The position numbers and the translations under genes were made by a program. The notes beneath the pieces were generated by a model that was not told where the DNA came from, did not search any database, and saw only the letters and a program-made list of their open reading frames with translations. Below, piece after piece: positions 4,763-52,473 of a DNA stretch of 64,000 nucleotides (the first letter of the stretch is position 1; the number at the start of each line of letters is the position of its first letter). Source of the stretch: Parcubacteria group bacterium GW2011_GWA2_48_9 (GTDB taxonomy: Bacteria; Patescibacteriota; Patescibacteriia; UBA10025); contig LCPQ01000019.1 in NCBI GenBank assembly GCA_001003705.1, positions 3,268 through 67,267 on the forward strand. The letters run 5' to 3'.

Positions 4763-6283
4763 GTGAGGCACAAATGCCGGGCTTTTTGGTATACTGTCTT
4801 CATGCCCCATAAAAAGCTTTACATCGTCCTTGGCGCTATTGTTTGCATTTTCCTTGCTGCTTTCCTGCCTCTCCTCGTGATGCCGTCGGTGAAAGGCGGG
4901 GTGGATGTTTCCGATAGCAGCGTGGTTTACAGTGTCCTGCAGACTGCCAGGACGCACTTCGACAATCCGTTCCAGCGGGCGCTGGCGTTCCGTTACCAGA
5001 TTATTCACCACGAAGTAGTGGATCAGAAAGACTGGTACCGTGCCGTCGGAAAGACGCTTTTTGGCGTATCGATACATACAGCGGACGTTTTCTCCGACGG
5101 GAGCACTTTTACATTCCCAAGCTTTGAAAACGATATTGTCACGCCGGGTAACGAGATCCTGAATCAAGTTCAGGATGACAACCCCGATGTCGAGTTAACC
5201 GCCGCCGACCGGGCCGGCATGACTTTAAGCGCCGGAAGGTGCGAAGGCACTGACAAGCCGAAGCTGACCCATTTGCCGATGGACATGGAGGATTTTTCCA
5301 TGATTATCCCGTACGGCATGACTGCGGGTGGACACGTTACTCCCATCGACCACCAGTATTTTTCCCCGGCTGATTACAATTCTCCGCTTGACGCGTATGA
5401 AGTATATGCCATGGCTGATTCACGGATCGTTGCTATTGGCCCGCGTCCGAGGATTGACAAGGACGGCAACCCATTCGAGGAATATCGCATGATTTTTTCT
5501 ATGAGCTGTCGTTTATTATATTATTATGATTTGGTCACAAGCCTGGCGCCGGATCTGAAAGCCGCATACGAACGCGACGGCAACAATATTAATTTCCCTG
5601 TGAAAGCCGGACAGCTCATCGGCTACATCGGCGGGCAGACACTGGACTTCGCCGTGTGGGACACCGAGAAGCCGCTTACCGGATACGTCGTTCCAGAACA
5701 CTACGAGAGCGAGGGGTGGAAAATATACACAGCTGACCCGCTGGACTATTATGCCGACGAGTTAAAGGAACAGGCGCTGTCGAAGTATATTCGTACCGCA
5801 GAGCCCCGAAGCGGCAGGATTGATCATGATATTGACGGCAAGCTCATCGGCAACTGGTTCCAGCAAAATACCGACGGTACGACTTCGGGATACAGTGACA
5901 CGGGCGGTGAGTATTGGACCACGCACGTTTCATTTTCACCCGACCATATCGATCCGACGGGGTTTATCATCTCGATAGGGAACTGGCCGGGCGGCGCTAC
6001 CCAGTTCTCAGCAAAAGGGAATACGCCCGATCCGGCCACTGTCGGCGTGGAAACGGGGCTCGTGAAATACGATTTACGGGGAGTGAATTACCGTGATAGC
6101 AACGGCAACTGGGACCGGATGTCGTTGAAGCCGCCTATCACATTCGAGCCCGGCATTGAAGCGTACGGTTGCGCACTGGTCCAGCTCACTGATTCGCGCG
6201 AACTGAAAGTAGAAGTGTTCAAAGGTTCGAATTGCAGCAGTGTGTTTGGATTTACCGACGCGGCGGTGATGTATATGAGGTAG
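4763..6283 (+). CDS. hypothetical exported protein, possibly a degenerate LytM/M23-like domain
   Basis: N-terminal TM/signal anchor. HVTPIDH (HxxxD-like) is present, but the second M23 HxH motif is replaced by LDFAVWD. True start may be the internal Met at 4804. Confidence 0.4.
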   Translation: MRHKCRAFWYTVFMPHKKLYIVLGAIVCIFLAAFLPLLVMPSVKGGVDVSDSSVVYSVLQTARTHFDNPFQRALAFRYQIIHHEVVDQKDWYRAVGKTLFGVSIHTADVFSDGSTFTFPSFENDIVTPGNEILNQVQDDNPDVELTAADRAGMTLSAGRCEGTDKPKLTHLPMDMEDFSMIIPYGMTAGGHVTPIDHQYFSPADYNSPLDAYEVYAMADSRIVAIGPRPRIDKDGNPFEEYRMIFSMSCRLLYYYDLVTSLAPDLKAAYERDGNNINFPVKAGQLIGYIGGQTLDFAVWDTEKPLTGYVVPEHYESEGWKIYTADPLDYYADELKEQALSKYIRTAEPRSGRIDHDIDGKLIGNWFQQNTDGTTSGYSDTGGEYWTTHVSFSPDHIDPTGFIISIGNWPGGATQFSAKGNTPDPATVGVETGLVKYDLRGVNYRDSNGNWDRMSLKPPITFEPGIEAYGCALVQLTDSRELKVEVFKGSNCSSVFGFTDAAVMYMR

Positions 6284-50004: not shown

Positions 50005-50799
50005 ATGTTTTTTGGAAGCGCCTACCCGGATCCCATCGTACTCCAGGCAGGCGCTTTTGGTATTCACTGGTATAGTTTACTGCTTGTAGTTGCTATTGGA
50101 GCGGGGTTGTTGGTGACTTTGCATGTCGCCCGCAAGAAAAATATTCCCGAAACGGCCATATGGGATTTTTCATTTCTTGCGGTTATTCTAAGTATCGTAT
50201 TTGGGCGTTTTGTTTTTGTTGTAAGTTATCTCCATTCGTTTAGCAGTCTTGTCGAAACGGTGAAAGTCTGGGAAGGTGGGATATCAAGCCATGGAGTCCT
50301 CACCGGAGGGCTACTAGCAGCATTTCTCACCATGAGGCGACACAAGATGTCATTCTGGGCATTCACCGATGTGGTAATCCCTGGAGCGGCATTAGCGCAG
50401 GCAATCGGGCGATGGGGAAATTATTTCAATCAGGAAGTACTCGGATCTCCGAGTAATGCATGGTGGGCAGTGCCAATTGACCTGGCGCACCGCCCAGAAG
50501 CATTTATGCAAGCACTGTATTTTCACCCGATTTGGCTGTATGAGTCGCTTTGGTGTTTATTGCTATTTTTTTGTGTGTATTCTTTTCAAAAAAAGTTCAC
50601 TCCGCACCCCGGGGTCGTGACGTTGATGTATTTTTCCCTGTATTATCTTATCCGGTTCGTCCTTGATTTTTTTCGTAATGACGCCCTCTCATTCGGAGCG
50701 CTCACAGGGACGCAAACCATTGCCATCGGAGTGTGGATAGTAGCGGTAGTGTTTGTTGTACTCACGAAGCGGAGATCAGAACCGAGCACCACTCAATAG
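50005..50799 (+). CDS. lgt: prolipoprotein diacylglyceryl transferase
   Basis: Lgt signature GRWGNYFNQE and 7-TM topology. Confidence 0.85.
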   Translation: MFFGSAYPDPIVLQAGAFGIHWYSLLLVVAIGAGLLVTLHVARKKNIPETAIWDFSFLAVILSIVFGRFVFVVSYLHSFSSLVETVKVWEGGISSHGVLTGGLLAAFLTMRRHKMSFWAFTDVVIPGAALAQAIGRWGNYFNQEVLGSPSNAWWAVPIDLAHRPEAFMQALYFHPIWLYESLWCLLLFFCVYSFQKKFTPHPGVVTLMYFSLYYLIRFVLDFFRNDALSFGALTGTQTIAIGVWIVAVVFVVLTKRRSEPSTTQ

Positions 50800-50817
50800 G
50801 CCGTACAGAAATTAATA

Positions 50818-50896
50818 CATTGATTGCCTGGTAGCAGGGGTGGGGATCCGCTTCGCGCCTGGGCGCTGCACTTGCTCGCGCCCTTCGATCCCCACA
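50818..50896. repeat. tRNA-3'-end-like direct repeat copy 1 (29-31 bp identical to the 3' end of the tRNA-Met-like gene) with palindromic GC-rich insert
   Basis: TTGATTGCCTGGTAGCAGGGGTGGGGATC identical to 51118-51146. GTGGGGATC...GATCCCCAC inverted repeat encloses a 43-nt GC-rich insert. Confidence 0.55.
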
Positions 50897-50956
50897 TGTG
50901 AAAACACCCTTAACTTTTAGATATAGGGTCTTGGTAGTTATTTTCTAGCGTGCTTA

Positions 50957-51065
50957 TAGCAGGGGTGGGGATCCTCCCCGGGCAGCGCCGAATGCTGCGC
51001 ACGCTCGCATTCGTCGGCGCTCACTTTCGTTACACTCGGGTTCGCTGCTGCCCTTCGATTCCCAC
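50957..51065. repeat. tRNA-3'-end-like direct repeat copy 2 (17 bp TAGCAGGGGTGGGGATC) with longer GC-rich insert
   Basis: Same core as copy 1 and the tRNA. GTGGGGATC...GATTCCCAC inverted repeat around an 83-nt insert. Confidence 0.5.
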
Positions 51066-51126
51066 TAGAAAAATTAACCTTACTTGCCACTGGGTAGGTC
51101 TCGAGGAAATTAAAAAGTTGATTGCC

Positions 51127-51203
51127 TGGTAGCAGGGGTGGGGATCGAACCCACGACCTTGGGCTTATGAGTCCCACGCTCTAACCAGCTGAGCTACCCG
51201 AAT
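51127..51203 (-). tRNA. tRNA-Met/Ile2-like (anticodon CAT), possible pseudo- or chimeric tRNA: acceptor stem pairs at only 5 of 7 positions (3 G-C, 1 A-T, 1 G-T)
   Basis: Reverse complement gives ATTCGGG-TA-GCTCAGCTGGTTAGAGC-G-TGGGA-CTCATAA-GCCCA-AGGTC-GTGGG-TTCGATC-CCCAC-CCCTGCT-A-CCA. D, anticodon and T arms are canonical. The 5' acceptor strand ATTCGGG is not complementary to the 3' strand CCCTGCT. Confidence 0.5.
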
Positions 51204-51461
51204 CGAAGGAAAAGGTCAAGCCATCATTCTGTGGTGCAGTCTAGTGGAAGCTATTCGAACCTTTGTCATGCAGGAGCAGATGCGAACATCCAGAATGGCA
51301 ATGAACCCAGCGTAGCGTTGACCACGGAGTGCGTCAGTGGCCGGGGGCGGGTATGGCTAGCATATCGCGACGTGAACGAGCACTCACCTAAAAGAAAGCT
51401 CCCGCGCGAGACAAGCTCACGCGGGAGGTACGGAAACATAGGTATTTCTGAGTACAGGGTG

Positions 51462-51989
51462 TTACTTCTTCGGGACACCCGCGAACCAGAGTCGACCTCT
51501 CCGACTCCATCTCGAAATGGTCGCCCTGCCTTCCCTACTCGAACGAAGAAAAGTGATCCAAATAGGGTAGTCGTTCTTTACCCGCTCGTCGATGTTGTGC
51601 CAAAAGGTGCAGTTTGGGTGCTTGGACGAAAATGTCCAGTCGTCTGTATTCGCCTGAATTAGCGAATATGGATCGGCTGGCTCGAGATTACCCGTACAGT
51701 TGCGCGTGAGACCATTCTCAACCGTTGGAACATCTATTGTCAAATGGAAATAGCGCGCGGCGGAGAGCATCTCCTTAGGGGTACGACTGCGATCGACCCT
51801 TACCCGCTTTTTGATGATCGTGGTCATTCGTTTTACATCTAAAGCCACTGCGTTTGCGAACCTTCTGGCGAGCTCTTCCCCCATGTAGTCGAGAGTTGCA
51901 ACGCCAGGGCCGTCCGGCAAGTTGCGTCTGCGAAGCGCATCTTCGATCAGTGCCTGCGCCTTAAGGATTGCAGGTGTTTTTTCAGTCAC
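51462..51989 (-). CDS. hypothetical protein (Arg-rich C-terminal tail may be read-through)
   Basis: Protein-like N-terminal 140 aa with no recognisable domain. Sits between two tRNA genes next to att-like repeats. Confidence 0.3.
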   Translation of the reverse strand: MTEKTPAILKAQALIEDALRRRNLPDGPGVATLDYMGEELARRFANAVALDVKRMTTIIKKRVRVDRSRTPKEMLSAARYFHLTIDVPTVENGLTRNCTGNLEPADPYSLIQANTDDWTFSSKHPNCTFWHNIDERVKNDYPIWITFLRSSREGRATISRWSRRGRLWFAGVPKK

Positions 51990-52293
51990 GTCATCCTCCT
52001 CACATGGTGTTTTTGGTTTGGGAACATTCCTCCGGCAATCTCAACGAGAGGTAATGATCTTGACGAAAGGCTGTCCCCAAACTCTCGAGGTATGACTTTG
52101 CTAGCTTGTTTTTGATGGAAAGGTGCAAGTTAGAACAACCTAGGCTATCACGAAGTTGCCATTCTGTCAACTGCTCGGGATTTGAGATATCAAAATGCTC
52201 CAGAGGTCCGGTTCTACTGGGCTTCTTGAGGATTAAGTTTTATTTACGCTGGTTGTGCCTTCGTCCAGAAAAACATGGCCGGAGGCGACCATA

Positions 52294-52377
52294 TGCCGCG
52301 GGAGAGAATCGAACTCTCATGAGGTCGCCCTCGCAGGATTTTGAGTCCTGTGCGTCTGCCAATTCCGCCACCGCGGC
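52294..52377 (-). tRNA. tRNA-Leu (anticodon CAA), class II with long variable arm; CCA not encoded
   Basis: Reverse complement GCCGCGG-TG-GCGG-AATTGGCAGA-CGC...CAGGA-CTCAAAA-TCCTG-long arm-AGAGTTCGATTCTCT-CCGCGGC-A. All stems pair. Confidence 0.85.
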
Positions 52378-52473
52378 ACGAAAGTACATCGCATTGTACT
52401 GATTGTAGCCTCGTTTGTCAAAGCATGCTCTATTCGGTATACTATTGATATATTTTCATACTGAAGACACGAT

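Follow-up and report, generated by a model that had tools for sequence, protein, structure and literature searches.

The 64-kb window analyzed here (64,000 nucleotides of contig LCPQ01000019.1 from Parcubacteria group bacterium GW2011_GWA2_48_9; all coordinates are those of the window) contains a minus-strand tRNA-Met gene that is followed by an array of copies of its own 3' end. These copies form the ends of two elements, w1 and w2, which are read here on the tRNA (minus) strand. On this strand, the order is tRNA-Met, a 61-nt spacer, w2 (51065-50954), another spacer, w1 (50895-50829) and a copy of the tRNA trailer. The array adjoins the lgt gene (50005-50799, plus strand), and the neighbors within 10 kb are suf genes, dsbA-like genes, lgt, parA and parB. 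The features of the array are the following (labels beginning with L denote sequences compared with the window):

51127..51203, minus strand: tRNA-Met (anticodon CAT, CCA encoded), detected by ARAGORN; 50.5 bits with the Rfam tRNA model, non-canonical acceptor pairs
51118..51146, minus strand: master copy of the repeat, composed of GATC (final 4 nt of the T-loop), CCCAC (3' strand of the T-stem), CCCTGCTA, CCA and the trailer GGCAATCAA
51066..51126, minus strand: spacer 1, 61 nt, from tRNA-Met to w2; by eye, a small imperfect hairpin (ACCTAC...GTAAGGT) followed by TAATTTTT
50954..51065, minus strand: w2, the long form of the element, 112 nt; 36 bits with the covariance model, of which it is not a seed member; 81% identical to L172a overall and 84% in the body
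w2 parts (fold and sequence), minus strand: 5' arm GTGGGAATC (51065-51057), GAA, branched body, 3' arm GATCCCCAC (50973-50965), tail CCCTGCTA (50964-50957)
50896..50953, minus strand: spacer 2, from w2 to w1; by eye, a hairpin (ACCCT...AGGGT) followed by GTTTT
50829..50895, minus strand: w1, the short form of the element, 67 nt; 77.9 bits with the covariance model; 84% identical to the L171 element
w1 parts (fold and sequence), minus strand: 5' arm GTGGGGATC (50895-50887), GAA, helix P2, AGG, helix P3, 3' arm GATCCCCAC (50848-50840), tail (50839-50829)
50789..50828, minus strand: copy of the tRNA 3' trailer after w1; first 9 nt exact (GGCAATCAA, 50828-50820), the rest about 70% similar

The array had been singled out in an original prediction, made from the letters of the window, as a series of direct repeats resembling the 3' end of an adjacent minus-strand tRNA, and that gene is indeed tRNA-Met(CAT) at 51127-51203. 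The 17-mer TAGCAGGGGTGGGGATC starts on the plus strand at 50832, 50957 and 51130 (0.06 occurrences expected by chance; three matches in 0 of 100 shuffles), and the copy at 50957-50973 lies exactly where it had been placed. A longer segment of 29 nt, TTGATTGCCTGGTAGCAGGGGTGGGGATC, is identical at 50820-50848 and 51118-51146; the second of these copies had been located correctly, and the first had been started too early, at 50818. With 80% identity, the similarity of these two copies reaches over 60 nt (50789-50848 versus 51087-51146), and the resemblance of the flanks, which had also been noticed, is confirmed. Within the repeat, CCCTGCTA corresponds to the acceptor 3' strand of tRNA-Met together with the discriminator, and GGCAATCAA to the first 9 nt of the 3' trailer. 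The predicted pairing of the T-stem half GTGGGGATC with GATCCCCAC, the downstream partner being at 50887-50895, is real, with 38 nt between the arms rather than 43, and the one with GATTCCCAC (51057-51065) has the anticipated 83 nt between the arms.

Anatomy of the elements

In each element, a branched body rich in GC and in purines lies between a 5' arm and a 3' arm, and an unpaired tail follows the latter. The 5' arm is the reverse complement of the tRNA T-loop and the 3' strand of the T-stem. The 3' arm is a copy of the last T-loop bases and the T-stem 3' strand; its pairing with the 5' arm yields the closing helix, P1. The tail copies the acceptor 3' strand, with the CCA present or absent, and is single-stranded. 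Together, the 3' arm and the tail are a copy of the tRNA from the last four bases of the T-loop to the 3' end. P1 encloses a three-way or multi-way junction and has 9/9 pairs in w1 and 8/9 in w2. In w1, P2 is GGGCGC/GCGCCC with the cap GAGCAAGTGCA, P3 is CGC-GAA-GCG, and the tail is CCCTGCTACCA, that is, CCCTGCTA-CCA. The ends of w2 are the same as those of w1, and its larger, branched P2 includes a hairpin with the same type of loop on a different stem (CGAATGC...GCATTCG); the w2 tail ends in TAA in place of CCA.

In w1, the 5' arm and the adjacent GAA together make up a 12-mer, GTGGGGATCGAA, that matches the reverse complement of the T-loop and T-stem 3' strand of tRNA-Met at every position. 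This 12-mer is an exact reverse complement also in L169, and 9-11 of its 12 positions match in other members of the family described below. The GAA, which faces the universal TTC of the T-loop, is unpaired within the element and might act as a junction nucleotide, pair with the tRNA T-loop or be a trace of a copying mechanism. The covariance model aligns the T-arm and 3' end of an ordinary tRNA as P1 and the tail, with the body deleted. The element looks like a T-arm with the acceptor 3' strand in which the loop has been swapped for a structured body.

Among nine members, P1 comprises 9/9, 8/9, 8/9, 6/9, 7/9, 7/9, 9/9, 9/9 and 7/9 pairs, and is always located immediately before GAA or GAG. At this fixed register, at least 8 of the 9 pairs form in five of the nine members (chance in random flanking sequence, 0.038). 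Fold stability favors the tRNA-sense strand, which is approximately 62% purine, in all 10 of 10 Patescibacteria elements (p = 0.002, for members that are not independent of each other). Two open reading frames (ORFs) that overlap w2 (50938-51177, minus strand, and 50950-51132, plus strand) were considered as coding regions and rejected: no gene caller in ten assemblies calls them, and w2 differs from L172a by a 1-nt indel.

Related elements in other Patescibacteria

Relatives of the elements were sought by scanning a genome collection with the shared 17-mer, by a metagenome scan, by neighbor-gene look-ups and with a covariance model. In the 17-mer scan, about 60 further species of Patescibacteria proved to have the same tRNA-Met, and in L044, L051, L053 and L055 the tRNA 3' end is present once more downstream. 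The metagenome scan with DGATCCCCACCCCTGCTA returned 24 loci, 22 of which are chance matches; the two real ones are L107, a tandem pair, and L113, which belongs to the species of the window. Neighbor-gene look-ups yielded L169, L167 and the lgt-syntenic loci L171 and L172; the loci reached by synteny via the neighbor gene of L107 (L168, L170, L173 and L174) have no tRNAs nearby. A single MAFFT alignment of all members misaligned the short against the long forms, and subtype alignments and the covariance model were used instead. This model, built from four members, recovered w2, L044, L172a and L172b, none of which had been in the seed, and newly detected L065 and L089. The candidates L051 and L053 were not accepted as members because their bodies differ and model R1 does not match them; they resemble the tRNA-linked repeats (TLRs) discussed below but lie outside the GAA-GGGC family. 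Neither w1 nor w2 matches any Rfam family, at gathering thresholds or at E values up to 10: the matches in the window, L044, L051 and L107 are all to tRNA. Copies of the element at sites unrelated to tRNAs are absent from the 64-kb window and from about 570 kb of related loci.

The window and L172 each have two units, L107 has at least two, and L171, L169, L044, L065 and L089 have one each. They lie on the tRNA strand, w2 being 61 nt and w1 about 230 nt downstream of tRNA-Met. The units are 67-125 nt long (inserts of 58-173 bp) and share a conserved junction core, the three-way junction GAA-GGGC...GCCC-RGG. Their 3' ends are identical to the upstream tRNA over 29 nt in w1 and 17 nt in w2, and over 25, 21, 22, 20 and 18 nt in relatives.

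The pairs w1-L171, w2-L172a and L107b-L169 are 79-84% identical overall and 76-84% identical in the body alone, whereas in the same genomes the lgt DNA is 60-63% identical and the spacers are 49-70% identical. In particular, the Lgt proteins of L171 and L172 are only 48-49% identical to that of the window, yet homologous elements are present downstream of an intact tRNA-Met. With respect to lgt, the tRNA-fMet/tRNA-Met/element block is inverted between these loci, being convergent in the window (50800-52400) and co-oriented in L171 (3850-4400) and L172 (3950-5930); the orientation of tRNA-Leu and parA is the same in all three.

The arms change together with the tRNA. In the tRNA-Met-linked members, GATCCCCAC is paired with GTGGGGATC, whereas L169, L065 and L089 have the element after the initiator tRNA-fMet, with a 3' end copied from that tRNA and a 5' arm altered such that complementarity is retained. 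Specifically, the 3' end is AAATCCCACCCCCGCAACCA in L169, where AAATCCCAC pairs with the 5' arm GTGGGATTT; AAATCCTGCCCCCGCTACCA in L065, where AAATCCTGC pairs with GTAGGATTT; and AAGTCCCACCCCCGCAACCA in L089, where AAGTCCCAC pairs with GGGACTT. RNAalifold reports three double compensatory changes in P1. The L169 element is located in the spacer of a tRNA-fMet/tRNA-Met operon; compared with the close relative L167, in which the site is empty, it is an insert of about 114 nt flanked by the 20-nt tRNA-fMet 3' end.

Within the species of the window, the three repeat copies are base-for-base the same in all other assemblies that cover them (L001-L008, L010 and L113), which means that this population is fixed for the array; the L009 assembly stops within the second copy. 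The product of the adjoining lgt gene is identical on contigs of groundwater Candidatus Kerfeldbacteria metagenome-assembled genomes, including GCA_001818285.1 and GCA_001004025.1.

Resemblance to E. coli tRNA-linked repeats and possible function

In E. coli, TLRs are sequences within tRNA and rRNA operons that terminate in 18-19 bp identical to the 3' end of the gene preceding them; a locus carries 1-5 of them, and the total is 22, mostly without a known function (PMC8144298). Examples include the 178-bp tyrT repeats with RttR (Rfam RtT) and the rrA/rrB/rrF small RNAs (sRNAs) (Egan & Landy 1978; Rudd 1999; Stenum et al. 2021, PMC8144298). For RttR and RrA/B/F, transcription and processing to discrete RNA have been demonstrated in E. 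coli, and the RrB repeat has been proposed to direct cleavage by RNase E (Stenum et al. 2021, PMC8144298).

We examined the tyrT-tyrV-rttR locus directly (L175; E. coli K-12 NC_000913.3, 1286000-1287700). It contains six copies of the 19-mer AATCCTTCCCCCACCACCA, which starts in the T-loop. Each unit opens with GGGGAAGGAT, the complement of ATCCTTCCCC, and in minimum free energy folds has a 10-bp closing helix, a branched body and a free ...CACCACCA tail; the closing helix and free tail are our observation on the tyrT units rather than part of the published TLR definition. This is the design of w1 and w2, in which the repeat likewise begins in the last bases of the T-loop and a P1-closed branched body is followed by a free ...ACCA tail. 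As with the E. coli TLRs, the Patescibacteria units are located directly downstream of a tRNA gene (or a 5S gene in E. coli) in the same orientation, with 1-5 units per locus, and terminate in an exact repeat of the 3' end of that gene, over 18-19 bp in E. coli and 17-29 bp in the window. The weak hairpins with T-runs that precede some Patescibacteria units are reminiscent of rrB, which lies between the terminators T1 and T2. In contrast to the E. coli repeats, the units of this other phylum are associated with elongator tRNA-Met and initiator tRNA-fMet, are shorter (67-125 nt), possess the GAA-GGGC...GCCC-RGG core and lack an equivalent of the tpr ORF. By architecture, although not as homologues, the Patescibacteria elements are of the same kind as the E. 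coli TLRs, and they constitute a conserved family of TLR-type elements that has not been described before in this phylum. Separately, the bodies of the tyrT TLRs hold a degenerate copy of the variable arm and T-arm of tRNA-Tyr (CTTCGACCAAGGTTCGAC versus ATCGACTTCGAAGGTTCGAA in the tRNA), a sequence likeness which suggests that these TLRs may have arisen as duplications of the tRNA 3' half.

We therefore favor, with a probability of about 0.62, the interpretation of w1 and w2 as TLR-type RNA modules that lie in the 3' part of a tRNA-fMet/tRNA-Met transcription unit. The modules would be transcribed together with the tRNAs, at times by read-through of the weak spacer hairpin and T-run. The tRNA-identical 3' segment would then allow the tRNA 3'-end maturation machinery to cut or trim the modules, the tRNA-like 3' end probably acting as a processing signal, by analogy with the E. 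coli repeats. Discrete, stable RNAs closed and protected by P1 would be released; the role that Stenum et al. proposed for the RrB repeat in E. coli is a parallel for such release guided by the 3' segment. In this respect, the modules would be comparable to tRNA-operon sRNAs and to RNAs of tRNA 3' external transcribed spacers (3'ETS-leuZ), which differ in having neither a copy of the tRNA 3' end nor a closing helix. Co-transcription is suggested by position: the L169 element, being inside an operon spacer, would be expected to be transcribed with the tRNAs; hairpins with T-runs that look by eye like terminators follow the unit in L171, L044 and L169; and the fold is biased toward the sense strand.

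Arrays of this kind might grow, shrink and be reshuffled through unequal recombination between the repeated tRNA 3' ends. Such recombination is indicated by the spacer after tRNA-Met in L172, which is most similar (70% identity) to the window spacer between w2 and w1, that is, spacer 2, and by the w2 end 'CTATAAGC', which equals the end of the L172 tRNA. Furthermore, the repeat runs past the CCA into the trailer in both the window and L171, which implies duplication at the DNA level and not retro-insertion of a mature tRNA end.

Several observations weigh against the interpretation as RNA modules. A simple terminator scanner made no call on the spacer hairpins or on the terminators seen by eye (window, L171, L172, L044 and L169). 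A 7-nt complement of the tail that could provide a partner in cis or a pseudoknot was detected only in L169 (p of about 0.03), and none in the other eight members; with no conserved pairing partner, the tail is not a true mimic of the acceptor stem, and exonucleases might just remove it. The CCA is missing in w2, L044, L172b and L053, and L172a and L172b have diverged from the 3' end of their own tRNA, with 13 and 6 nt exact, respectively. The family is small (about 12 members, including three closely related pairs), and apart from P1 the covariation statistics are weak; the complementarity within P1 itself could result from DNA-level copying instead of selection on an RNA. The element is present at only about 10% of the sampled Patescibacteria tRNA-Met loci and is therefore dispensable. 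Nor does the resemblance to the E. coli repeats extend to the sequence of the bodies: the Rfam RtT model does not match the Patescibacteria elements at E values up to 10, and in model R1 only P1 and the tail align to tyrT. Homology between the bodies was considered and is not demonstrated, as the alignments are non-significant except for EcA-L044, the sole pair that stands out among 14 comparisons (z = 4.2, shared GAGGAGCGAA(A)GCGACG).

A broader and decidedly more tentative proposal, which we consider doubtful, is that TLR-type modules are an ancient or repeatedly evolved class of tRNA-operon sRNAs with one design across E. coli and Patescibacteria, namely a 5' arm antisense to the T-loop and T-stem, a P1-closed body and a free tail of acceptor strand and CCA. 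If this is the case, the tRNA-mimicking end would recruit 3'-end nucleases, the CCA-adding enzyme or factors that act on tRNA-Met and tRNA-fMet, and the function of the RNA in Patescibacteria would be tied to the methionine and initiator tRNAs, for example, as a decoy or a reporter of growth rate. Alternatively, the modules may spread by copying the T-arm of whichever tRNA they landed beside. TLRs have been recognized in E. coli since 1978 and are still largely a puzzle; the Patescibacteria provide comparative leverage, given that the design is found in a very distant, genome-reduced phylum, is better conserved than the neighboring protein-coding gene, and occurs with two tRNAs, both arms being matched to each. 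The retention of about 300 bp of such sequence in the streamlined genomes of Patescibacteria argues against junk. If the architecture reflects function, a copy of a tRNA 3' end with a complement of the T-loop and T-stem 60-130 nt upstream becomes a search rule for any genome, and tRNA 3'-end processing would be the step that is exploited.

Alternative explanations and minor observations

The most viable alternative is a non-autonomous, self-propagating DNA element that inserts at tRNA T-arms or is copied from them, such that the hairpin and the arms are products of copying and not of RNA function. We consider this unlikely as a full explanation but it is a live alternative for how the copies arise, through template switching at the quasi-palindromic T-arm or mobilization in trans. 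It would account for the 12-mer complement of the T-loop and T-stem, with the partnerless GAA opposite TTC, and it fits with the presence of one body type after two different tRNAs, the presence/absence polymorphism, the shuffling of modules and spacers between the window and L172, and the inversion of the tRNA block relative to L171 and L172. On the other side, each sampled genome has just 1-2 copies, none of them away from tRNAs in the window or in the related loci, and viral contigs have none. Orthologous copies with well-conserved bodies persist at the same locus over deep divergence, which suggests retention rather than turnover. Self-propagation is, in addition, compatible with a function of the RNA.

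The original prediction offered two views of the array, nested remnants of past integrations or a small tRNA-derived repeat element; the latter was essentially right, and the former is not the best reading. In the integration scenario, which we regard as quite improbable, an element with a T-loop-targeting tyrosine integrase entered tRNA-Met or tRNA-fMet once or more and was later deleted, with attR-type duplicates of the 3' end and remnants of its arms staying behind. Crossover sites in the T-loop are reportedly typical of some integrase subfamilies (Williams 2002, Nucleic Acids Res), and the repeats, like the att cores such integrases are said to use, start in the T-loop. As in tRNA genes with attL/attR insertions at this sublocation, direct repeats of the tRNA 3' part (17-29 nt; in the window and L171 they include the CCA and part of the trailer) do bracket the inserts, and one pair of close relatives has an occupied site in L169 and an empty one in L167. 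In contrast to such insertions, the Patescibacteria inserts are structured, conserved across genera and equipped with an arm complementary to the repeat, which switches with the tRNA and is needless for an attR. At none of about 10 loci is there an integrase or cargo between the repeats or close to them, and none is present within 10 kb in the window or its relatives; the absence of an integrase had been noted originally and holds for at least 10 kb on either side. Zero genuine matches came from 2.9 million viral contigs. [quoted passage not shown] The bracketed DNA is neither lineage-specific nor free of structural constraint, as indicated by the conserved bodies, the compensatory changes in P1 and the strand-asymmetric fold; the DNA that would be leftover arm sequence is 76-84% conserved while lgt is 60-63% identical, and E. 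coli has TLRs of the same design. Finally, the same arrangement with an intact tRNA-Met is found in L171 and L172. As the bodies are conserved above the neighboring gene and most spacers, the 5' arm covaries with the tRNA, and no integrase or phage copy was found, integration is weakened, although it may still, with low probability, be the historical origin of the array. What the original prediction overlooked is the reading of the unit on the tRNA strand, the 5' truncation of the tRNA-Met in the window and the precedent of the E. coli TLRs.

Least likely of all, and very improbable, is that the elements are structural terminators or insulators whose GC-rich hairpins stop or buffer convergent transcription of lgt (ending at 50799, plus strand) and the tRNA operon (minus strand), with an incidental likeness to tRNA: they do fill this junction, where no other terminator-like site is predicted, and L107 is in the same convergent position, but no U-tract or T-run immediately follows P1 on either strand (the scanner found no terminator at 50800-51130), L171 and L172 have the block in the same direction as lgt, the L169 element separates two tRNA genes within a single operon, a place in which termination would do harm, and the exact tRNA 3'-end copies and conserved junction sequences would be left unexplained.

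The tRNA-Met of the window differs from that of the other assemblies. It is 5'-truncated, with the first 4 nt lost and the acceptor pairs 2:71 and 4:69 broken. These mismatches are due to a 118-bp deletion (junction 51199/51200) relative to all other assemblies, which takes away, besides these 4 nt of tRNA-Met, an 18-nt spacer, all of the initiator tRNA-fMet and a further 21 nt upstream. A second deletion, of 126 bp at 51690, is inside the upstream hypothetical ORF, at a position where L004 has a scaffold gap (a run of N). Both deletions are clean, and beyond them the window shows no difference from the other assemblies over 1.7 kb. As a cell could hardly live without its initiator tRNA, an assembly error is likely behind the deletions. 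Between the tRNA operon and tRNA-Leu (51231-51989), gene calls differ among assemblies: a product of 217 aa on the minus strand, one of 172 aa on the plus strand with one of 145 aa on the minus strand, or one of 143 aa on the plus strand. This stretch has no Pfam or NCBIfam match, contains a strong terminator-like hairpin on the minus strand (51427-51399) and may be partly non-coding.

Several unusual arrangements were observed at the related loci. In L107 (1180-1200, minus strand), the second tandem element has GGATCCCCA and a terminal ACCA, and the 7-8 nt between them are TCTCTCTCT rather than the tRNA-Met acceptor strand; the contig stops short of the partner tRNA, and TCTCTCTCT is either a copy from another tRNA or the result of drift. 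In L167 (5368-5610; GCA_016217875.1, Kerfeldbacteria), a tRNA-Met of the GGCAGGG type is split in the anticodon loop by about 150 nt that hold a second, different tRNA-Met(CAT) at 5447-5523. An inverted repeat, CCCCGCCACAATT / AATTGTGGCGGGG, flanks this insert. The 3' part of the split tRNA, which has been displaced (...CACCACCCCTACTACCA), has diverged, and the arrangement looks like one tRNA gene nested in, or replacing, another. The group I introns of Patescibacteria tRNAs were rejected as relatives of the elements, being inserted at 35/36 in the anticodon loop and much larger. Finally, on the minus strand of L036, just upstream of 615-631, a mini-tRNA-like sequence without a D arm or an anticodon arm, in which a short linker joins GGCAGG to a normal T-arm and the acceptor 3' strand, is located right after the 3' end of another tRNA.

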